The notes under the pieces: generated by a model
What the model saw: only the letters and a program-made list of their open reading frames with translations
Databases searched by the model: none
Told to the model about the DNA's origin: nothing
Shown here: piece after piece, positions 3,124 to 35,020 of the stretch
How positions within the stretch are numbered: position 1 is the first letter of the stretch
Layout: each line of letters begins with the position of its first letter
Translations under genes and position numbers: made by a program
DNA from: an uncultured Planctomycetia bacterium
Lineage (GTDB): Bacteria; Omnitrophota; Gorgyraeia; 1-14-0-20-64-10
Assembly: GCA_964603095.1 (NCBI GenBank)
Contig: CAZRTR010000001.1
Location: forward strand, 8,723 to 72,722
Reading direction: 5' to 3'
DNA length: 64,000 bases

Positions 3124-4305
3124 TCACTTTTGCCTTTTCACGTACGGCAGTCCCCATAGGGTGATGAACCCGGCCGCCGCCTTCTGGTCGAAGCTATCCT
3201 GCCCCTCGTAGGTGGCCATCCGTTTCGAGTAGCGGGAGTGGGGGGAACGCCTCCCGACGCAGACGGCGGTCCCTTTGAACATCCTGACCCGCGCCGTGCC
3301 GGTGACCCGTTGAGTGGCCGACTCGACGAAGGAGTCGAATGCCTCCTTGAGGGGAGTGAACCAGAGCCCGTCGTAGATCAGGCGGGAGTAGCGCTGGGCC
3401 ACGATCTCCTTGAAGCCCAATGTTTCCCGGTCGCAGGTCAGCTGCTCCAGCTCCCTCGAGGCGGCATGCAGGATCGTGGCGGCCGGCGCCTCGTACACCT
3501 CTCTCGATTTGATCCCGACCAGCCGGTCCTCGATCAGGTCGGTCCGCCCGACCCCGTGAGCCGCCCCGATCCGGTTGAGCCGCCCGATCAGCTCGATGAG
3601 AGACAGCCGCTTGCCGTCTAAGCCGACCGGAGTCCCCTTCTCGTAGTCGATCTGAACGTAGGTGGGTCTGGCCGGCCCCCTGGCGGGATCTTTTGTCCAT
3701 CGATAGCATGCTTGTGGCGGCTCGACCCACGGATCCTCCAGAGGCCCCGATTCGATCGAGCATCCCCAGAGGTTCTGGTCGATCGAGAAGCGGGATTCTG
3801 TTTTTCGAGCGATCGGGAGCCGATGTCTCTGGGCGTACTTGATCTCTTCTCCTCGGGATTTGAGCGTCCATTCCCGGACCGGGGCCAGGATCTTTAAGTG
3901 GGGGGCCAGGATCCGCAGGGAAACCTCGATCCGGACCTGATCGTTCCCCTTCCCCGTGCAGCCGTGGGCCACCGCCTCCGCCCGCTCCGCTTTCGCCGCA
4001 TCGGCCAGCCCCTTGGCGATCAGAGGGCGGCTCAAGGCGGTGGCGAGCAGGTACTTCCCCTCGTACACCGCCCCGGCCTTCAGGGCCGGAAGGATGTAGT
4101 CCCGGGCGAAGGGGATTTTTAAGTCCCGGACGCTCACCTTCTCCGCTCCGCAGCGGATCGCCCGCTGCCGGATCGGCCGGAAATCCTCCCCCTGGCCCAG
4201 ATCGGCGCAGAAGGCGACCACCCGGTATCCCCGTTCGGTCAACCAGCGGATGCAGACGGAGGTGTCCAACCCCCCGGAATAGGCCAGAACCACTTTCGGT
4301 TTCAT
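3124..4305 (-). CDS. argG: argininosuccinate synthase
   Basis: MKPKVVLAYSGGLDTSV... is the PP-loop ATPase motif of ArgG. Confidence 0.92.
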   Translation of the reverse strand: MKPKVVLAYSGGLDTSVCIRWLTERGYRVVAFCADLGQGEDFRPIRQRAIRCGAEKVSVRDLKIPFARDYILPALKAGAVYEGKYLLATALSRPLIAKGLADAAKAERAEAVAHGCTGKGNDQVRIEVSLRILAPHLKILAPVREWTLKSRGEEIKYAQRHRLPIARKTESRFSIDQNLWGCSIESGPLEDPWVEPPQACYRWTKDPARGPARPTYVQIDYEKGTPVGLDGKRLSLIELIGRLNRIGAAHGVGRTDLIEDRLVGIKSREVYEAPAATILHAASRELEQLTCDRETLGFKEIVAQRYSRLIYDGLWFTPLKEAFDSFVESATQRVTGTARVRMFKGTAVCVGRRSPHSRYSKRMATYEGQDSFDQKAAAGFITLWGLPYVKRQK

Positions 4306-5216: not shown

Positions 5217-6460
5217 GGCTGATTCACCCTTCGACGCGCCGTTCGTCCTGAGCCTGTCGAAGGACGAACGGCTTGCTCAGGGTGAACGGTAGAAAGGGCT
5301 TCATCCAGCAATTTGATCCCTAAGTCGAGCTGGGATCGCTTGACGCTGAGGGCCGGATAGAGCCGCAGGACTCTCTCCTGGGTGCAGTTGATCAGCAGCC
5401 CCCGCTTTCGGGCCTCCACCACCACCTCCTTTCCGGGGCGGTCCAGCTCGATGCCGACCATGAATCCCCTGCCCCGGACTTCCCGGATACCCAAATGCTT
5501 CTGTTTCAGCTCCCCCAACCGCTTGAACAGGTAAGGGGAGAGCCGCTTGACGTTGGCGAGCAGCTTATCTTTCCGGATCGCCTCCAACGCCGCCAGACCG
5601 GCGGCGGTCACGAGCGGATTACCGCCGAAGGTGGTGGCGTGGGTCGCCTTCTCCCAGGTGTCGGCAATCTCCCGTTTGGCGATCAGCGTCCCCATCGGAA
5701 GCCCACCGGCGGCCGGCTTGGCCAGCAACAGGATGTCCGGCTTGACCCGGTACTGCTGGAAGCAGAACAGAGTTCCGGTCCGGCCCATCCCGGTCGAGAT
5801 CTCGTCGAAGATCAGAAGCAGTTGATGCTCGTCGCACAACCGCCTTAAACTTCGGACATACTCCGGCTTGGCGACATGGATCCCTCCCTCTCCTTGGATC
5901 AGCTCCAGCATGATCGCCACCGTCTTGGGGCCGACGGCCCTCTTCACCTCCTCGATCCGGTTGAACGGCACATGGACGAACCCGGGAAGAAGCGGCTCGA
6001 ATCCCCGCTGGTGCTTGGACTGGGCGGTGGCGGAGAGGGCCCCGTACGTCCGGCCGTGGAACGATCCCTCCATCGTGATGATTTCCCATCGACCCGGGTA
6101 TCCATGCCGCCGTGCCAGCTTGATCGCCGCCTCCACCGCTTCCGCCCCGCTGGAAACGAAGAAGGTCTTGCCGTCGATGCTGTTTCGGATCAGCATCTCG
6201 GAGAGCCGGGCCTGCGGCTCATGGTAAAAGGTGTTCGGCACATGGATCAACCGCTTGACCTGCCGCTGAACCGTCTTGACGACGTGGGGATGGCAGTGCC
6301 CCAAGGCGTTGACCCCCCACCCCGGGAACAGATCCAGGTAGCGCCGCCCTCCCTGGTCCCAGAGCCAGGAGCCGGAGCCGCGGGCGGCGGCGATCCCCAG
6401 CCGGTTGTAGACCGGGATCGAGAACTTCTCGTACAGTTTCTCAATCTGCTTTGTGGTCAT
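5213..6460 (-). CDS. argD: acetylornithine aminotransferase
   Basis: Class-III PLP aminotransferase (GNPL..., DEISTG, KP.AGG). The C-terminal roughly 25 aa are encoded by the repeat. Confidence 0.88.
   Translation of the reverse strand: MTTKQIEKLYEKFSIPVYNRLGIAAARGSGSWLWDQGGRRYLDLFPGWGVNALGHCHPHVVKTVQRQVKRLIHVPNTFYHEPQARLSEMLIRNSIDGKTFFVSSGAEAVEAAIKLARRHGYPGRWEIITMEGSFHGRTYGALSATAQSKHQRGFEPLLPGFVHVPFNRIEEVKRAVGPKTVAIMLELIQGEGGIHVAKPEYVRSLRRLCDEHQLLLIFDEISTGMGRTGTLFCFQQYRVKPDILLLAKPAAGGLPMGTLIAKREIADTWEKATHATTFGGNPLVTAAGLAALEAIRKDKLLANVKRLSPYLFKRLGELKQKHLGIREVRGRGFMVGIELDRPGKEVVVEARKRGLLINCTQERVLRLYPALSVKRSQLDLGIKLLDEALSTVHPEQAVRPSTGSGRTARRRVNQP
5228..5290. repeat. REP-like palindromic repeat, family 1 (copy C)
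   Basis: cgttcgtcctgagcctgtcgaaggacgaacggcttgctcagggtgaacgg lies in the argD 3' end/argF junction. It is translated as the argD tail ...AVRPSTGSGRTARRRVNQP. Confidence 0.6.
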
Positions 6461-7362
6461 TTGACGATCTCCGTTCCGATCCCCCGGTCGGTGAAGATCT
6501 CCAGCAGCAGCCCGTGAGGAATCCCCATGTCAATCATGTGGGTTTTTCGGACTCCCCCTTTGAGGGCCTCCATGCAGGCCCGGGTTTTCGGGATCATCCC
6601 TCCGGCGATGACGCCCGATCGGATCAGGCGGTTCGCGCCGGCCGCCGTCACGGTCGGGATGATGCTCTTCAGATCCTTGGAGCGGCGCAGGATCCCGGGC
6701 ACATCGGTCACCAGGACGAACTTCTCCGCCTTTAAAGCCGCCGCCAGGGCGGCGGCCGCCTCGTCGGCGTTGATGTTGTAGACTTGGCCGTTCCAACCGG
6801 CGCCGACCGGAACGACGACCGGGATCACCCCCAGCGCCAGCATCCGCTTGACCGGTCCGGTGTTGACGCCGGTCACCGTCCCGACGAATCCGAGATCCTC
6901 CCCCGGGATCGTCATCGGCTCGGCGTGGATCAAGCCCCCCTCCCAGCCCATCAGGCCCTGCGCCCTGGCCCCCAGCCGCTCCAGTTCCTTGACCAGCATC
7001 CGGTTGACCCCTGTCAGGGCTCTGACCACCGTCCGCAGCGTCGGGGCGTCGGTGACCCGAAGCCCCTGGACGAACCGGGCCGGTTTCCCGCCCCGGTTCA
7101 TCCGTTTGGTGATCTCCGGACCTCCTCCGTGCACCAGAACCGGCCGGATGCCGGCTGTGCTCAAAAAGACGATATCCTCCAGGATTGCCCGGCGCCTGAC
7201 CGAATCGGTGACGGCCGAACCGCCGTATTTGATGACGAATCTCTTCCCTCGAAAGGCCTGGAGATAGGGGAGGGCCTCCAGGAGATGGTCCGCCTTCTGG
7301 ATGATGGCGGCCGGGATCCGGTGGTTGAGGTCAGCTCGTGTATTTGGCATTGATCCGGACAT
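6457..7362 (-). CDS. argB: acetylglutamate kinase
   Basis: Amino-acid kinase family (GKRFVIKYGGSA...VHGGGP). Confidence 0.9.
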   Translation of the reverse strand: MSGSMPNTRADLNHRIPAAIIQKADHLLEALPYLQAFRGKRFVIKYGGSAVTDSVRRRAILEDIVFLSTAGIRPVLVHGGGPEITKRMNRGGKPARFVQGLRVTDAPTLRTVVRALTGVNRMLVKELERLGARAQGLMGWEGGLIHAEPMTIPGEDLGFVGTVTGVNTGPVKRMLALGVIPVVVPVGAGWNGQVYNINADEAAAALAAALKAEKFVLVTDVPGILRRSKDLKSIIPTVTAAGANRLIRSGVIAGGMIPKTRACMEALKGGVRKTHMIDMGIPHGLLLEIFTDRGIGTEIVK

Positions 7363-8530
7363 ACTCCTCGGTCAGGTCCGCGCTGAGAAGCCGGTGCTCC
7401 CCCCTTCCCAGTCCCAGGTCGACTCCGATGGCGATCTCCGAATGGTCCACCTGGTCCAGGAGGGTCGGACGGCTGAGCCGGGCCGGTTCCCCGTTTCGGA
7501 AGACGGTTACCTTCCCCAGCCGGATCGTCAGTCGCTTCGGATCGATCCGGCATCCGGAGCCGCCGACCGCGGCCGCCACCCTTCCCCAGTTGGGGTCCCG
7601 CCCCGCCACCATCGTCTTGACCAGCATCGAGTCGGCGATTGAAATGGCCACCTGCCGGGCCTCTCGCCCGTTGGCCGCGCCGACCACCTGCACCTTCATC
7701 ATCCGTGTCACCCCTTCCCCGTCCCGAACGATCTCATGGGCCAGGTATCGGCAGACGGACTTCAGCCCCTCCTCGAAGCTCCGGTACGGCCTGCTCCCCG
7801 GCCGGAGGCGAGCTGCGCCGGAGCGGCCGTTGGCCAGGATCAGCACCATGTCATTGGTGGAGGTTTCTCCGTCCACCGTGATCCGGTTAAACGACTCCTC
7901 CACCGTCCGGCGGAGCAGCCGCTGCAGCGTGGTTCGATCAACCCGGGCGTCGGTCGTCAGGAAGCAGAGCATCGTGGCCATGTTGGGAGCCACCATCCCG
8001 GATCCCTTGGCGATGCCGCCGATCGTGATCGGCCTTCCCTGGACCGAGAAGCGGACGGCCAACTCTTTCGGACGGGTGTCGGTGGTCAGGATCGCCTCCG
8101 CCGCCAGGTGGGAGCCGGTCTTGGATATCCTCTTGGCCGCCTGCTCGATTCCTTTTCGGATCCTTGGCGTCGGGAGAGGATGGCCGATCACCCCGGTGAA
8201 GGCGACCAGCGCCTCGGTGGGCCGGATCTTGAGCGCCTGGGCCGTCCACCGGGCCGTCGCCTCGGTGTCGGCCGCCCCTCGCCGCCCGGTGCAACAGTTG
8301 GCGTTGCCGCTCACCGCCACGATCGCTCGGGCCGATCCGTGCCGCAGCATCTTCGCCGCCCGATCGACGCAGGAGGCCCGGAGCGCATTGCGCGTCAAGG
8401 TTCCTGCCATGGAGGCCGGATGCTCGGAAAAGATCAGGGCCAAGTCCTTCCCCCGTTTCTTCACCCCGCAGGAGATCCCCGTGGCAAGAAACCCGGCCGG
8501 CGCGGTCACTCCCCCCGCGACCCGGTTCAT
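7331..8530 (-). CDS. argJ: bifunctional ornithine acetyltransferase / N-acetylglutamate synthase
   Basis: ArgJ family with the autoproteolytic ATML/T motif (PNMATMLCFLTTDA). Confidence 0.9.
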   Translation of the reverse strand: MNRVAGGVTAPAGFLATGISCGVKKRGKDLALIFSEHPASMAGTLTRNALRASCVDRAAKMLRHGSARAIVAVSGNANCCTGRRGAADTEATARWTAQALKIRPTEALVAFTGVIGHPLPTPRIRKGIEQAAKRISKTGSHLAAEAILTTDTRPKELAVRFSVQGRPITIGGIAKGSGMVAPNMATMLCFLTTDARVDRTTLQRLLRRTVEESFNRITVDGETSTNDMVLILANGRSGAARLRPGSRPYRSFEEGLKSVCRYLAHEIVRDGEGVTRMMKVQVVGAANGREARQVAISIADSMLVKTMVAGRDPNWGRVAAAVGGSGCRIDPKRLTIRLGKVTVFRNGEPARLSRPTLLDQVDHSEIAIGVDLGLGRGEHRLLSADLTEEYVRINAKYTS

Positions 8531-10495: not shown

Positions 10496-11623
10496 TCAGG
10501 AAGGGAGGAAAAATTCCATATCAATCCATTCCCTCGCCTTGAGCACTTCCACCTTGACATGGAGCGGCCCCTCCCGCGCCGAGAGGGGCATCTCCCCCAG
10601 CAGGGAAGCCCCGTCCTGGGAGGAGGTGAAGAAGCCGGTGATCGGCCTGGGCCCGTCCGGGTTCAACACCCAGCGGCCCTGCAAGGATCGGGTATCGACG
10701 GGGCGGTTGAGGTGGTCGTTCACGTACAGGATCAGGCGGCTCTCCTTCTCCCGGATCAGCTCGTAATGGAAGATGTCGTTGGCATCCCCAAAGTATCCCC
10801 CGTGCCGTGGGCCATGGGCGGCTGTCTTCTCCAGCGCGGCGGAGAGGGCGAAATCGGTTCCCATCGCGACGAAGAAGCCGATCAGCAGTCCGATCTCCAC
10901 AATTGCCTCCCCCTTGAGGATCCGGCCCAAGTGGAGCAGCTCCCCCACAATATAGAGGATCGTTCCGGCCGCCAGGGCCAGGCAGAAGACCTCGGTGGTT
11001 TTGCTGACCCAGGCCGATCCGGCCACCGCCCCCAGGAAGGTGGGGCCTCCGGCGATCACCCCCGTCAGCCCCAAGAATCCCCAGCTGGCCCGGTGCCCGG
11101 ATAAGGGGGCGGCGATCCCGAACCCTTCCGTGGCGTTGTGGAGGGCGAAGCCGATCGCCAGCAGCCAGGCCAATTCCCTTGCCCCGGCCGCGTGCCCCTG
11201 CCCGATTGCCAGCCCCTCGCTCAAGTTGTGCAGCCCCAGCCCCAGGGCGATCATCAGGGCCAGCTGCTTGGCCCGCCGGGCCGGCGGCACCTCATCCTTG
11301 GCCGAGCCGATGAACCGCTTCTCGAACCAGACCAGGCCGAGCAGCCCGATCGAGAAGCCCAGGACGAAGATCCCTCCGTACCGGAAGGCGCCGGAGAGGG
11401 AGCCGCCGCTCACCGCCGCCTGTTCCACCATCTCCTCGATCTCCTCGATCAGATGGCCGGCGATCTCCACCAGGAGGAAGATCAGAATCCCGGTGGAGAC
11501 GGCGTTCAAGAAGGCCTTGGCCTTCTTCGACACATGCGCCAGCCGGGCGATCGGCAAGCCAAGGAAGATGGTCCCTCCCGCGATCAGCCCCAGAAACCAG
11601 GGAGACGAGATGCTTATTCCCAT
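10496..11623 (-). CDS. ZIP-family (ZupT/GufA-like) metal permease with an extra C-terminal soluble domain
   Basis: Eight predicted TM helices with HNLSEG and HNATEG signatures. A roughly 105-aa hydrophilic, beta-rich C-terminal extension has no recognised match. Confidence 0.75.
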
Positions 11624-21562: not shown

Positions 21563-22420
21563 TCACCCCCTCACCCCCCGGCCCGCCTTCCGGCCTTCGC
21601 GCCGGGGCGGGCTGTCCCTCTCCCCCTCAGGGGGAGAGGGTAGACCAGTCTCAGGACTGGAGGGGGCGGCGTACGATTTCTTCGGAATCCGACCGGCCAG
21701 GAAAGCCAGCCGCCCCGCCTCCACGGCCAGCCGCATCGCCCCGGCCATCTGAACCGGATCTTGGGCGCCGGCCACCCCGGTGTTCATCAAGACCCCATCC
21801 ACCCCCAGCTCCATGGCGATCGCCGCGTCGGAGGCGGTTCCCACACCGGCATCGACGATGACCGGGATCCGGACCCCCTCCCGGATGAACCGGATGTTGA
21901 GGGGATTGAGGATCCCCTGCCCCGATCCGATCGGAGCGGCCAGCGGCATGACGCAGGCGGCCCCTGAATCTTCCAGCCGTTTGGCCGTGATCGGATCATC
22001 GTTGGTGTACGGCATGACGACAAAGCCCTCCTTGACCAGGATCTCGGTTGCCTCCAGGAGGGCCTTCGTGTCCGGAAGCAGCGTCTTCGGATCCCCGATC
22101 ACCTCCAGCTTGATCAGGTTGGAGAATCCGCAGGCGCGGGCCAGCCGGGCCACCCGGATCGCTTCCTCCGCGGTATAACAGCCGGCGGTGTTGGGCAGAA
22201 GGGTGTATCGGGCCGTGTCCAGATGACTCAAGACCGGATCGGCGGCCCGATTCTTCAAATCGACCCGGCGGACCGCCACCGTCACCATCTCGGTTCCGGA
22301 GCATTCCAGCGCCTGGCGCATGATCTCTGGAGAGGGGTACTTCCCCGTTCCCAGGATCAGCCGGGACCGAAGCGTGTAGGAACCGATCTTCAGCAGATCC
22401 TCTGTTTCTGTTTGGATCAT
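21563..22420 (-). CDS. thiG: thiazole synthase
   Basis: [28 protein letters not shown]... and C-terminal ...[14 protein letters not shown]. The start is trimmed from a 372-aa ORF and overlaps the glgC stop (ATGA). Confidence 0.88.
21567..21640. repeat. GC-rich nested palindromic element, family 2 (copy 1)
   Basis: tcaccccctcacccc ... ccctctcccc ctca ggggagaggg. It is related to 25513..25562 and is translated as the thiG tail ...[12 protein letters not shown].... Confidence 0.6.
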
Positions 22421-23658
22421 TTCAACTCCGTTCCTTTCGCCACGACCGTGATGCCCGATTCGGTCACGGAGAAGCGGCGGCGGTCCTCCGCCGGATCGTA
22501 CCCGATTACGGTGGAGGCGGGGATCTTCACATCCTTGTCGATGATCGCCCGGCGGATCCGGCAGTGGCGGCCCACATCCACCCCCTCCAGCAGGATCGAG
22601 TCGGTCATCTCGCTGTAGCTGTTGATTCGGACATTCGGGGAAAGGACTGAGCGGACCACCTTCCCTCCTGAGAGGATGCATCCTTCGGCCACCAGAGAGT
22701 CCAGCGCCATCCCGACCCGCTTCGGGTCCTCCCCACCGGCGAAGATGAACTTGGCCGGGGGATGCTGCTCCATGTAGGTTCTCACCGGCCAGTCCCGATC
22801 GTACAGGTTGAAGGTCGGGGTGACCTGCACCAGGTCCATGTTCGCCTCGTAGTAGGCGTCCACCGTCCCCACGTCCCGCCAGTAGGGGGGCTGTTCCGGC
22901 GTTCCTTCCATCAAAAAGCCGATGACCCGGCGGTTGGCCCGCAGGCAGTTGGGAAGGATGTTCCGGCCGAAGTCATGCTCTGTCGGCTGCTTGGCGTCAC
23001 TCAGCAGCTCTTCTTCCAGCACCTTCCGGTTGAACAGGTAGATCCCCATAGAGGCGTAGATCTGGCTTGGTGTTCCGGGAATCACCGGGGGATCGGCCGG
23101 CTTCTCCACGAACCGGACAATCCGGCGCCTGTCATCCAGCTCCGCCACCCCCAACAGGGGGGCCTTCTCCCTTGGCATCGGAACCACCCCCACGGTGACC
23201 TCGGCCTGGGCTTCCTCATGGAACTCCAGCATCTGGGCATAGTTCATCTTGTAGATGTGATCGCCCGCCAGGATGAGGACGTGGGTCGGCTTCTCCATCT
23301 CGATCGAGTAGATGTTCTGATAGACGCTGTCCGCCGTCCCCTGGTACCAGTGTTCATCCACCCGCTGCTGCGGATGGATGACGTCGATGTATTCCCCCAG
23401 CTCGGCGTCGAAGATGTTCCATCCCATCCAGAGGTGCCGAACGAGGGAGATCGACTTGTACTGGGTCAGGACGTGGATCTTCCTCACCCCCGAATTGATG
23501 CAGTTGGAGAGGGTGAAGTCGATGATCCGGTAGATCCCCCCGAAAGGCACCGCCGGCTTGGCCCGGTCCCGGGTGAGCGGCATCAGCCGTTCCCCTTTCC
23601 CCCCGGCCATCACGAAGGTTAAAACATCCTTCATCCTTGTCTGAATGACCCTTTGCAT
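22417..23658 (-). CDS. glgC: glucose-1-phosphate adenylyltransferase
   Basis: AGGKGERL...[21 protein letters not shown]. The start is chosen at an ATG preceded by AAGGA. The annotated ORF extends to a TTG at 23700 through a hairpin. Confidence 0.85.
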
Positions 23659-23675
23659 TTTCCTTGAAGTTTCTT

Positions 23676-23697
23676 GTGCACCGTTAGGTGCACAGTC
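23676..23697 (-). promoter_or_regulatory. perfect 8-bp hairpin in the glgC 5' region
   Basis: ttgtgcacc gtta ggtgcacag sits immediately upstream of the preferred glgC ATG. Confidence 0.3.
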
Positions 23698-23736
23698 CAA
23701 GAGAAATCCCGCCGCCAGGCGGGAGGGAAACCCCCA

Positions 23737-24528
23737 TTATATCCTCCTTTGGGCGAGCGTTACAAGGAGACGGGTGTACGGGTGCTCAGGGGCTTGGAAC
23801 AGACGGGGGTTGGACCCCTCCTCGATGATTTGGCCCTCGCGCATCACCAGGATCCGGTCGGTGATGGCGCCTACCGTCGCCAGGTTGTGAGAGATGAAGA
23901 AGAGGGTCAAGCGGCGCTTGGCCTGGAGCTGGGTCAGGAGCTGAAGGATTTGGGCCTGGACCGAAAGATCGAGGGAGGAGACCGGCTCGTCACAAATCAG
24001 CAGCCGGGGACTTAAAGCCAACGCCCGGGCGATCCCGACCCTCTGGCGCTGGCCCCCGCTTAAATGCTGCGGACGTCGGGCGGCCAACTCAGGGTCCAGC
24101 CCCACCTCTTTCAGCAGGTTCCGGACCTTCTCCTTCCGCTCCTGACGGGTCCCGATTCGATGGATCGCGATCGGCTCTTCGATGATCTGTCCCACCTGCA
24201 TCAGAGGGTCCAGCGAGGCCATCGGATCCTGGAAGATCATTTGAACCGATTGGCGGAACTCCCGGAGCCGTTCCCCGCGGAGGGAATCCAGCGGTTCTCC
24301 CCGGAATCGGATCGACCCGCTCGTGGGGTTGAGGAGCCGGCACAGGAGCCGGGCCAGAGTGCTTTTCCCGCACCCCGACTCCCCCACCAGCCCCACCGAC
24401 TCCCCCTCCCGCAAAGAGAAGGTGACTTCTTTCACCGCTTCCACCCAACCCTTGGTTGAACCGAGGGAGTGTGCTTGAAGCGGGAATCGCTTGGTTAAGT
24501 CCAGCGCTTCAAGCAGCGGTTCACTCAT
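23737..24528 (-). CDS. oppF: oligopeptide/dipeptide ABC transporter ATP-binding protein (OppF-like)
   Basis: Walker A GESGCGKST, signature LSGGQRQR, Walker B LLICDEP, and the C-terminal oligopeptide-ABC region. Confidence 0.85.
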   Translation of the reverse strand: MSEPLLEALDLTKRFPLQAHSLGSTKGWVEAVKEVTFSLREGESVGLVGESGCGKSTLARLLCRLLNPTSGSIRFRGEPLDSLRGERLREFRQSVQMIFQDPMASLDPLMQVGQIIEEPIAIHRIGTRQERKEKVRNLLKEVGLDPELAARRPQHLSGGQRQRVGIARALALSPRLLICDEPVSSLDLSVQAQILQLLTQLQAKRRLTLFFISHNLATVGAITDRILVMREGQIIEEGSNPRLFQAPEHPYTRLLVTLAQRRI

Positions 24529-24532
24529 GGGG

Positions 24533-24596
24533 CATCGATCGTCCTGAGCCTGTCGAAGGATGACCGGTCATGGTTCGGCAGGCTCACCATGACCGG
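24533..24596. repeat. REP-like palindromic repeat, family 1 (copy D)
   Basis: gatcgtcctgagcctgtcgaaggatgaccg followed by gtcatggttcggcaggctcaccatgaccg lies at the oppD/oppF junction. It is translated as the oppD tail. Confidence 0.6.
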
Positions 24597-25605
24597 CGAT
24601 GCCTTGTTCCCGTTTCCAGCAGCTTACCGTGTGGCCCTCCCGGACCGGCTTGAGCGCCGGTTCCTCGCTGCGGCAGCGGTCGATCACCTCGGGGCAACGG
24701 GGATGGAAGGGGCATCCGGCCGGGATCCTCCGCAGGTCCGGGACGGAGCCGGGGATCGCCTGGACCGTTTGTCTTCCCTGCCCGATTTTGGGAAGACAGT
24801 TCAGAAGTTGCTGGGCGTAAGGGTGGCTGGGGTTCCTGTAAAACTCCTGCGTCTTGGCCACCTCCACGATCCGGCCGGCGTACATGACGGCAATCCGGTC
24901 AGAGTGGGGGGCGACCGCCCCCAGATCATGGGTGATCAGCAGCACCCCCATTCCCCGATGCTCTTTGAGTTCCTTAAGCAGCGCCAGGATCTCATGCTGT
25001 GTCGTGACATCCAAGGCGGTGGTCGGCTCGTCGGCGATCAGGAGTTTTGGGTTCCCGGCCAGGGCGATGGCGATCATCACCCGCTGACGCATCCCCCCCG
25101 AGAGCTGGTGGGGGTACTGGCGGATCCGCTCCTGCGGCAAGGGAATCTGGACTTGGAAGAGAAGCTGGATCCCTTTGAGCCAGGCCTCTTTTCCATGGAG
25201 GTTCTGATGAAGCTCAATCGCCTCTCGGAGCTGTTCCCCGACACTCATGACCGGGTTCAGAGCGGTCATCGGGTCCTGGAAGATGTAGGCGATCTCGCCG
25301 CCTCGGATCGATCGAAGCTGCTCTTCCCCGAGGGAGGTCAGGTCGGTTCCCTGGAATCGGGCCCGGCCGCTGACGATCCGGGCCAGGGGAGGAAGGAGCC
25401 GGCCGATCGACAGGGCTAGCATCGTCTTCCCGCAGCCGGACTCCCCGACCAGGGCCAGGGTTTCCTTGGGGCGGATCTCCAGGTCGACCCCATCCACCGC
25501 TTTGACCGGGTGCCCCCTCACCCTTTCCCTCTCCCCTGAGGGGAGAGGGTGGGGTGAGGGGTAAATGTAGGTCCGCAGCCCTTGAATCGAAAGCAGCGGT
25601 GTCAC
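24568..25605 (-). CDS. oppD: oligopeptide/dipeptide ABC transporter ATP-binding protein (OppD-like)
   Basis: GESGCGKT, LSGGMRQR, LLIADEPTTALD. A GTG start overlaps the deacetylase TGA (GTGA). The N-terminal region carries a 16-aa in-frame insertion from palindrome family 2. Confidence 0.85.
   Translation of the reverse strand: MTPLLSIQGLRTYIYPSPHPLPSGERERVRGHPVKAVDGVDLEIRPKETLALVGESGCGKTMLALSIGRLLPPLARIVSGRARFQGTDLTSLGEEQLRSIRGGEIAYIFQDPMTALNPVMSVGEQLREAIELHQNLHGKEAWLKGIQLLFQVQIPLPQERIRQYPHQLSGGMRQRVMIAIALAGNPKLLIADEPTTALDVTTQHEILALLKELKEHRGMGVLLITHDLGAVAPHSDRIAVMYAGRIVEVAKTQEFYRNPSHPYAQQLLNCLPKIGQGRQTVQAIPGSVPDLRRIPAGCPFHPRCPEVIDRCRSEEPALKPVREGHTVSCWKREQGIAGHGEPAEP
25513..25562. repeat. GC-rich nested palindromic element, family 2 (copy 2)
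   Basis: cccctcaccc ttt ccctctcccc tga ggggagaggg t ggggtgagggg is a near-perfect 48-nt nested inverted repeat. It is translated inside oppD as SPHPLPSGERERVRGH. Confidence 0.7.
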
Positions 25606-28931: not shown

Positions 28932-30530
28932 TTAGTCCAGCCGGTAGCGCTGTTTCGAGCCCGGGACGTACCAGTGGAGCATCTCCCCCAGGCCCCAAGG
29001 GGTGATCTCCACCTGCTCGAACCGGCGGTGAAGGGCCGGAAGGGCGTCTGGCACGAACAGGAAGCAGACCGGCTGTTCCTCGTACAGGATCCGGTGCAGC
29101 TCATGGTAGACCCTCGCCCGGATCTTCGGGTCGAAGTTCCGGCGGCCCTCGATCAAAAGCTCGTCCACCTTCGGATTGGAAAACCGGATGAAGTTGAACT
29201 CCCCCTCCCCGGTTTTGGAGGAGTGCCAGATGTCGTAAGGATCCGGCTCCCGGGAAAGGCCCCACCCCAGGAGGATCGCGTCGAACCTGCGCTGGTCGAT
29301 GAACTGGTGTAGGAGGGCCGACCATTCCAGGATCCAGATCTTGACCCGGATCCCCACCTCCTGGAGCCGGCGCTGGATGATCTGAGCGGTCAGCTCCCGG
29401 GTCAGATTCCCTTGGTTGGTCAGCAGGGTGAACTCGAAACGAGTTCCTCCCTTCTCGATCACCCCGTCCCCGTCGGTGTCCCGCCAACCGGCGGATTGGA
29501 GAAGGGCCCGTGCCTGTTCCGGGGAGAAGGGGGCCGGCTTGACCTCCGGGTTGAAGGCCCACGATTCCGGCGGGAAGGGGCCGGTCGCCTCCACCCCCAA
29601 TCCCATCAGGACCCCTCGGATGATCTCGGGCTTGTCGATCGCCAGGTTGATCGCCCGGCGGACCCGGATGTCCTGGAACTTCGGGTCTTTCAGGTTGAAG
29701 CCGAGGTAGGTGTAGCCGAGCGAGGGATAGCGGAATTTCCGGAAGGCGTTTCGAAAACGGGGGGTTTCGGTCATCCGCTGGAATTGGAGCGGGGTCAAGC
29801 CGGTCTCATCCACCCCCTGGGCCTGGAGCTCCAGGAAGATCGTCGCCTGGTCCGGGATGATCCGGGTGATCACCCGGTTCAGATACGGCCTGCCTTCAAA
29901 GTAGTCGGGGTTGGCCTTCATCTCCACCCGATCAGACCGGATCCACCGGTGAAAGCGAAACGGCCCGGTTCCGATCGGCCGTTCACGAAACGGTGTCGTC
30001 GTCAGATCCTGATCTTGAAGGAGATGCTTGGGAAGGATCTTCATTCCCCAGGATGCTAAACCCGGGGCGAACGGCTCCTTGTACCGGACCCGGACCGTGT
30101 GGGGATCCAACACCTCCAGCGAGGCGATCCGTTCAAAGTCGCCCCGATACGGGGTGGGGACGAGGGGATCGATCAAACGCTGGTAGGTGAATTCCACGTC
30201 CTCGGCGGTGAATGGGGCCCCGTCATGCCAGAGGACCCCCTTCTTGAGGAAGAAGAGGATCGTCAGGCCCTCATCCCGGATCTCCCATCGGTCGGCCAGA
30301 TCCCCGATCAGCTGGAGGTCCCGGTCATACTTGACTAGCCCGTTGAAGATCAGATCGCAGATGCCGGCGGAGGCGCTGTCGGAGGCCAGGATCGGAACGA
30401 GGGTGCTGACGTCTCCGATCGAGGCGCTGACGAGGATGTCCCCGATGACCGGGACTTGGATTTCTTCTTCAGCGTGCGCGCAGGTTAAAGATCCAACGAG
30501 GAGGAGAAACACCCATCCGCCGTTCGCCCT
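28932..30530 (-). CDS. oppA: ABC transporter substrate-binding protein, family 5 (OppA/DppA/NikA-like)
   Basis: SBP_bac_5 architecture with a signal peptide WVFLLLVGSLTCAHA. The true start is uncertain because the annotated N-terminus is encoded by a repeat copy. Confidence 0.8.
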   Translation of the reverse strand, partial: RANGGWVFLLLVGSLTCAHAEEEIQVPVIGDILVSASIGDVSTLVPILASDSASAGICDLIFNGLVKYDRDLQLIGDLADRWEIRDEGLTILFFLKKGVLWHDGAPFTAEDVEFTYQRLIDPLVPTPYRGDFERIASLEVLDPHTVRVRYKEPFAPGLASWGMKILPKHLLQDQDLTTTPFRERPIGTGPFRFHRWIRSDRVEMKANPDYFEGRPYLNRVITRIIPDQATIFLELQAQGVDETGLTPLQFQRMTETPRFRNAFRKFRYPSLGYTYLGFNLKDPKFQDIRVRRAINLAIDKPEIIRGVLMGLGVEATGPFPPESWAFNPEVKPAPFSPEQARALLQSAGWRDTDGDGVIEKGGTRFEFTLLTNQGNLTRELTAQIIQRRLQEVGIRVKIWILEWSALLHQFIDQRRFDAILLGWGLSREPDPYDIWHSSKTGEGEFNFIRFSNPKVDELLIEGRRNFDPKIRARVYHELHRILYEEQPVCFLFVPDALPALHRRFEQVEITPWGLGEMLHWYVPGSKQRYRLD

Positions 30531-30585
30531 GAGCTTGTCGAAGGGCGAAACCGTTCGTGGTTCGACAGGCTCACCACGAACGGCC
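30519..30585. repeat. REP-like palindromic repeat, family 1 (copy E)
   Basis: ccgttcgccctgagcttgtcgaagggcgaaaccg followed by ggttcgacaggctcaccacgaacc lies at the secG/oppA junction. Confidence 0.6.

Positions 30586-32940: not shown

Positions 32941-35020
<2,080 letters not shown>

Follow-up and report, generated by a model that had tools for sequence, protein, structure and literature searches.

Two genes in a 64-kb stretch of bacterial DNA (64,000 nt of contig CAZRTR010000001.1, hereafter the window, meaning the whole stretch that was analysed) carry G/C-rich palindromes within an unbroken reading frame, one at the 3′ end of thiG and the other near the 5′ end of oppD, and this locus raises the question of what these palindromes are and how they come to lie inside two unrelated genes. 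We consider it likely that both, here termed element A (in thiG) and element B (in oppD), are copies of the known repeat BoxC, also called PIT (potential intrastrand triplex) or TMECO, tolerated in frame as neutral or selfish DNA; they constitute neither a new family nor a new mechanism. The repeat combines a CCCTCTCCCC/GGGGAGAGGG hairpin with a mirror-repeat GGGTGAGGGG arm, a layout that, judged from its letters, can fold as an intrastrand purine-motif triplex in single-stranded DNA. An earlier note on this DNA had proposed a palindromic element whose insertion is tolerated inside coding sequence, and comparison with OppD and ThiG orthologues, solved structures and four syntenic relatives supports that proposal.

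Sequence, position and predicted folding of the two elements

Element B occupies positions 25514–25561 as a two-sided, nested palindrome of 48 nt (cccctcaccc-ttt-ccctctcccc-tga-ggggagaggg-tg-gggtgagggg) lying in frame within oppD, where, as had been described, it forms part of the N-terminal region, namely codons 16–31, encoding PSPHPLPSGERERVRG. Its host gene (24568–25605, minus strand) starts with GTG and encodes a peptide ABC transporter ATPase of 345 aa that is 100% identical to P0001; the length of the element is a multiple of three and four of its six reading frames are open. The inner hairpin (25527–25549) reads CCCTCTCCCC-TGA-GGGGAGAGGG, representing pyrimidine strand, loop and purine strand, and a GGGTGAGGGG arm follows the purine strand in either reading direction, at 25514–25523 on the minus strand after AAA (3 nt) and at 25552–25561 on the plus strand after TG (2 nt). 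Previously described as arms of a palindrome, these outer segments are indeed that, but they are also more, each having the sequence of a mirror-repeat third (reverse-Hoogsteen) strand, with 10 of 10 triads (G·G:C, A·A:T, T·A:T) allowed on each strand in an in-silico pairing check. Folding, computed for the elements with Watson–Crick pairing only, returned a nested hairpin for B, at −46.3 kcal/mol for one strand and −44.4 kcal/mol for the other as RNA (z about −5) and at −24.2 kcal/mol as DNA (z about −6), with 0 of 200 shuffles as good in either case.

Element A (21566–21640, minus strand) is 75 nt long and makes up exactly the final 25 codons of thiG by translation, in line with the roughly 25 codons estimated before. 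The thiG gene (21563–22420, minus strand) encodes a thiazole synthase of 285 aa which is 100% identical to P0121 and 81–85% identical to proteins named Candidatus Omnitrophica, which makes an Omnitrophota host probable; its TGA stop (21563–21565) stands directly after the element, and the ATG of leuB (21553–21551) lies 9 nt downstream. The element has three parts, a hairpin, a third arm and, between the two, a 39-nt loop with another hairpin inside. The first hairpin (21616–21640) reads CCCTCTCCCCC-TCA-GGGGGAGAGGG with an 11-bp stem (ccctctccccc-tca-gggggagaggg), the nested hairpin (21580–21612, 33 nt) is unrelated and unique in the window, and the third arm (21566–21576, minus strand) reads GGGTGAGGGGG, with 11 of 11 triads against the purine strand allowed in the same pairing check. 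The claim that arms flank both elements therefore holds for B, which has two, but not for A, which has a single arm set apart by the 39-nt loop.

Assignment to the BoxC family

The earlier note had counted A and B as a second palindrome family of this DNA; the published TMECO pattern and matches in Escherichia coli instead identify the known BoxC/PIT/TMECO repeat (PMC4666352). The names PIT and, later, TMECO were given to what had been BoxC of E. coli (Holder et al. 2015, PMC4666352, which cites previous studies by Bachellier and by Hoyne/Maher), and in vitro the repeat folds into a stable intrastrand triplex of the purine-motif type. It was counted at 3610 occurrences across 262 proteobacterial genomes, lies exclusively between genes in E. 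coli K-12 and goes along with variability of the local sequence, while how it spreads is not known (PMC4666352). The published pattern, CCCTCNCCC-N3-6-GGGNGAGGG-N3-GGGNGAGGG (PMC4666352), is matched exactly by B at 25515–25549 on the minus strand (1 match vs 0.00 expected), and a relaxed form with a second loop of 2 nt is matched by B at 25527–25560 on the plus strand. An early fixed-spacing pattern with an N4 loop had no match in the window, the real loops being 3 and 5 nt. Element A shows 0 mismatches to the three BoxC blocks only with a first loop of 7 nt and a second loop of 39 nt, and it aligns with B and with an E. coli copy except for the insertion in the second loop; we thus take A to be a relaxed, split member of the family.

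A 60-nt query around B found matches in 5363 of 5426 E. coli genomes, at a median of 23 places per genome and with 80–90% identity. With the two-sided BoxC between yjdP and phnP of E. coli, B shares 87% identity across 53 nt, arm order and spacing included. The family has also been reported from cyanobacteria and other bacteria.

These matches bear on whether A and B could be products of slippage, gene conversion or compositional drift at the two sites, resembling BoxC by convergence and not being copies of a dispersed repeat. The window is G+C-rich (62.6%), neither a transposase, nor a target-site duplication, nor a clean empty site was found, and triplex geometry alone pushes sequence towards GGGNGAGGG mirror repeats. 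Such a local origin is nevertheless very improbable, in view of the identity to the E. coli copy just described and of the same variant, CA and AAA spacers included, in JGI metagenome contigs (L207–L260) of 43–50% G+C, where the copies are free-standing G/C-rich islands in mostly non-coding context. Relatives of similar G+C content carry no such element in 76 kb. Within the 64 kb, the exact 10-mers GGGGAGAGGG and GGGTGAGGGG are almost confined to A and B, and the three-block motif is likewise limited to the two loci, with matches in 0 of 20 shuffles.

The yjdP–phnP locus itself forms a deletion series across E. coli strains (L269, L122, L270, L271 and L272), with two inverted units 40 nt apart in MG1655, a nested palindrome resembling B in strain 14EC033, a simple hairpin in strain 134 and a single arm in strains 980-2 and Nissle. 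This series suggests that two-sided BoxC forms arise through the collapse of inverted pairs.

Probable insertion relative to orthologues and syntenic relatives

The earlier note had named the presence of the same segments in orthologues from unrelated taxa as the observation that would mark them as native protein sequence, and orthologues were compared on this point. Seven OppD orthologues (67–72% identity) lack the segment, having 5–8 residues between ...TYI and PVKAVDGV vs 18 in the window, a net gain of 13 residues relative to most of the seven. In solved OppD and DppD chains, alignment begins at about residue 28 of the query, and just 14–15 residues precede that point. For ThiG, five solved structures place the end of the conserved domain at about residue 261 of 285, and past the SSP motif the protein continues for 29 aa, compared with a median tail of 7 aa for the 120 closest homologues.

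In four syntenic relatives (L267, L273, L274 and L275), which are probably also Omnitrophota, the genes are arranged alike, as oppABC, methyltransferase, deacetylase, oppD, oppF, NTP-transferase, thiG and leuB. No BoxC-type hairpin was found anywhere in these four loci (about 76 kb, ≤2 mismatches), the two sites occupied in the window included. The elements thus show presence/absence variation among relatives, with both sites filled in the window and neither in the other four, and they appear to have arrived as lineage-specific insertions. In L267, OppD (7162–7995) has just 277 aa and ends in ...KVGQGKQNLPWNRF followed by the stop, without the C-terminal oligo_HPY region present in the OppD of the window, which may reflect a frameshift or truncation.

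Two closer relatives allow the elements to be ordered in time. The ThiG protein P0122, 89% identical to that of the window, ends in ...SGKVGN and the following gene overlaps its stop, which indicates that A is absent there. The OppD protein P0002 (78% identical) was called from MRGQPVKAVDG, and the upstream gene ends 95 nt before the PVKAV codons in P0002, compared with 92 nt in the window and 57 nt in L125, which is without the element; judging by this similar spacing, B is probably shared with P0002. As the closest relative seems to have B but not A, B is probably the older of the two, assuming that P0002 and P0122 come from the same organism of sample ERZ27297570.

An assembly artefact is unlikely, since records of this same OppD protein exist from two contigs. 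Neither the window sequence nor the alignments with relatives revealed a target-site duplication flanking either element, and a miniature inverted-repeat transposable element (MITE) was rejected because no direct duplication flanks A or B.

Persistence within coding sequence

The 15 OppD residues ahead of the insert are conserved and in the same frame, which makes translation through B the simplest reading, and the catalytic motifs (Walker A, signature, Walker B and H-loop) are intact and invariant relative to the orthologues. In an AlphaFold model of OppD, built on a 9-sequence alignment, residues 15–33 are without secondary structure and lie between β1 (residues 5–14) and β2 (34–44); the predicted local distance difference test score (pLDDT) averages 74 and falls below 50 at residues 19–21 and 24–30. 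The insert is accordingly predicted to sit in a surface β1–β2 loop of the ATPase domain. At thiG, A would have taken the place of the final few codons together with the stop, with the consequence that translation runs across the element to the TGA just beyond it.

The genes of the relatives overlap or abut, so that gene ends and permissive loops would be almost the only places where an element of this kind could survive. We propose that A and B persist as harmless repeats that keep the frame open at such permissive sites, in a genome almost without intergenic space, and that the P-x-P-x-GER... peptides would be by-products of the DNA repeat and not functional modules.

The opposite possibility, that the segments are native to OppD and ThiG and functional there, for example as a lineage-specific interaction loop or tail, could draw on the intact reading frames and on the probable presence of the segment in P0002, the closest OppD relative. 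It is countered by the orthologues and solved structures, which lack the segments, by the low-confidence, unstructured loop of the OppD model, and by P0122, in which the thiG tail is missing. The peptide is, moreover, the direct translation of a DNA palindrome that is mostly non-coding elsewhere. Native protein sequence was therefore rejected on the orthologue comparisons, and we regard a native function as extremely improbable.

BoxC in viral and metagenomic contigs

Viral contigs scanned for the inner hairpin provide a wider view of how the arms are arranged. Among the matches listed, 148 hairpins had enough flanking sequence and 84 of them carried exactly one GGGTGAGG arm, which lay downstream only in 43 and, as the complementary arm, upstream only in 41, with none having both; the arm was mostly 3 nt from the hairpin. 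The split architecture seen in A (hairpin, second hairpin of 23–41 nt, third arm) was found many times in phage contigs, which argues that the distant arm of A belongs to the element and is not there by coincidence.

Five viral contigs (L021, L034, L037, L039 and L094) contain many split units each, with second hairpins of 23–30 nt, and some of these units, at about 1/kb, precede GTTTT runs and look like intergenic terminators. Open reading frames (ORFs) spanning BoxC hairpins numbered 72 in the viral contigs, and the nine longest are without a Pfam family, which lends no support to intragenic copies being common; these ORFs are probably spurious.

Searches for further coding copies gave negative results. 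No BoxC arm joined to PVKAVDG codons turned up in a metagenome scan (0 matches), a scan of JGI metagenomes with the OppD N-terminal peptide returned no other insert-bearing OppD and only free-standing copies of the B variant, and concatenated BoxC-derived peptides, searched against a protein database, yielded four candidates, of which none scored. Across the thiG neighbourhoods of 80 genomes outside Omnitrophota (1.27 Mb), one BoxC copy was found among the matches listed (L160, 6784–6818), in an Archangium metagenome-assembled genome some 290 nt downstream of thiG. With this single copy, and none in the four syntenic relatives, BoxC is sparse outside particular lineages.

A broader and more speculative proposition is that BoxC/TMECO is an actively spreading mobile repeat that crosses phyla, its near-identical copies in E. 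coli, in phage contigs, in metagenome contigs of 43–50% G+C and in the 63% G+C, probably Omnitrophota, genome studied here reflecting horizontal spread and not convergence; we regard this as possible but doubtful. If it were true, A and B, both missing from the four syntenic relatives and one of them inside an intact gene of essential type, would be datable insertions with known empty sites that could reveal target and mechanism, and the split form of A would point to a modular element able to tolerate or acquire a nested hairpin.

The thiG–leuB junction

The thiG–leuB junction is a recurrent landing place. In a thiG relative from a JGI metagenome (L124), a full two-sided BoxC lies at this junction (1767–1816) and the ThiG tail SPLTPTLSPDRGEGKG is read from it, and a degenerate BoxC-like hairpin occurs at the same junction in L123 (about 2290–2340). 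In the syntenic relative L275, the thiG 3′ end (about 10790–10835) carries sequence of a different kind, the tail ...STLRQAQGERE of its ThiG (P0127) being encoded by ccacccttcgacaagctcagggtgaacgg, a half-unit of another palindromic family, of the type found at the oppD/oppF junction of the window.

The hairpins might be kept for a cis-regulatory role in mRNA or DNA, their coding read-through being incidental, and could then serve as an intercistronic stabiliser or processing site, as a translational attenuator early in oppD, as a Shine–Dalgarno-like sequence for leuB or as a replication or recombination signal. Their predicted RNA stability (−44 to −46 kcal/mol, z about −5) would fit such a role, as would the elements at the thiG–leuB junction of L124, L123 and, with a different palindromic repeat, L275, the purine-rich third arm of A, which ends 12 nt ahead of the leuB ATG, and the many BoxC hairpins of phage contigs that are followed by T-runs. 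However, A and B are absent from the four syntenic relatives with the same operon structure, and neither is followed by a T-run or received a terminator-like or promoter-like call, on which basis an intrinsic terminator was also rejected. A search of the window against Rfam gave 0 matches at gathering score, a permissive threshold adding only sub-threshold, hairpin-like matches, and PIT/TMECO elements of E. coli show neither promoter nor terminator activity and no bias in their distance to genes (PMC4666352). We consider a regulatory role unlikely, albeit less so than a local origin or a native function in the proteins.

Several observations weigh against the assignment of A and B to BoxC as neutral insertions. 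The family is defined by its multi-copy character, and only two copies are seen in the 64-kb window; both lie inside reading frames, which is atypical vs the always-intergenic copies of E. coli. Element A falls outside the strict published pattern, with respect to its first loop (7 nt assuming 9-nt stems) as well as its second. Neither a target-site duplication nor a clean empty site can be defined, and at oppD about three codons of the variable loop were replaced. The recurrence of BoxC-like elements between thiG and leuB in other lineages (L124 and L123) may reflect function rather than permissiveness, and both the neutrality of the elements and translation through them are properties that we infer. 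Tolerated BoxC copies are still the reading that we prefer.

The second palindromic family (units like CGTTCGTCCTGAGCCTGTCGAAGGACGAACGG and ACCGTTCGTGGTTCGACAGGCTCACCACGAACGGC) is located at the oppD/oppF junction of the window (24536–24597), where the final nine oppD codons and the stop (AGHGEPAEP and stop) are read from it. Further copies of this family are found at 1681–1715, 5240–5271, 30521–30584 and 32951–32986. In L267, oppD and oppF overlap and there is no such junction repeat.

Comparison with known systems

As copies of BoxC, A and B would bring into a candidate phylum a repeat known best from enterobacteria, and would indicate that BoxC elements can sit within intact genes, unlike what has been reported for E. 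coli K-12. With syntenic relatives available in which the sites are empty, the two copies can be used as natural experiments on the origin, spread and local instability of BoxC/PIT. For annotation, odd loops and C-terminal tails rich in P, G, E and R in compact, G/C-rich genomes could be explained as repeat-derived and not functional.

The elements of the window share with BoxC of E. coli the three blocks in the same order, the existence of two-sided forms, presence/absence variation among close relatives and the lack of a known transposase. They differ in that their host belongs to another phylum (probably Omnitrophota), in being intragenic whereas the E. coli copies are intergenic, and, for A, in the 39-nt second loop that encloses a second hairpin.

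The REP/BIME sequences and the RAYT-mobilised REPINs are likewise short (20–40 nt), G/C-rich, palindromic and dispersed, often at gene ends. BoxC, however, lacks their GTAG-type 5′ tetranucleotide and REPs lack the mirror-repeat third arm; a REP/REPIN identity is unlikely for A and B, which show no GTAG motif at their ends. No RAYT partner is known for BoxC.

Normally intergenic small repeats with occasional in-frame gene fusions are also represented by ERIC/RU-1, RUP and NEMIS (Delihas 2007, PMC2759123), although these are longer (about 100–170 bp), have a MITE-like or other architecture and belong to different sequence families (PMC2759123). The Rickettsia palindromic elements (RPE; Ogata et al. 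2000), as they are summarised in PMC10969869, are specific to Rickettsia, measure about 100–150 bp vs the 48 and 75 nt of B and A, have another sequence and no triplex-type third arm, and insert into genes frequently, compared with the two cases described here. In their effect on the host genes they are nonetheless similar to A and B, each being a palindromic repeat that lies in frame within unrelated housekeeping genes and is read as an extra peptide compatible with the fold.

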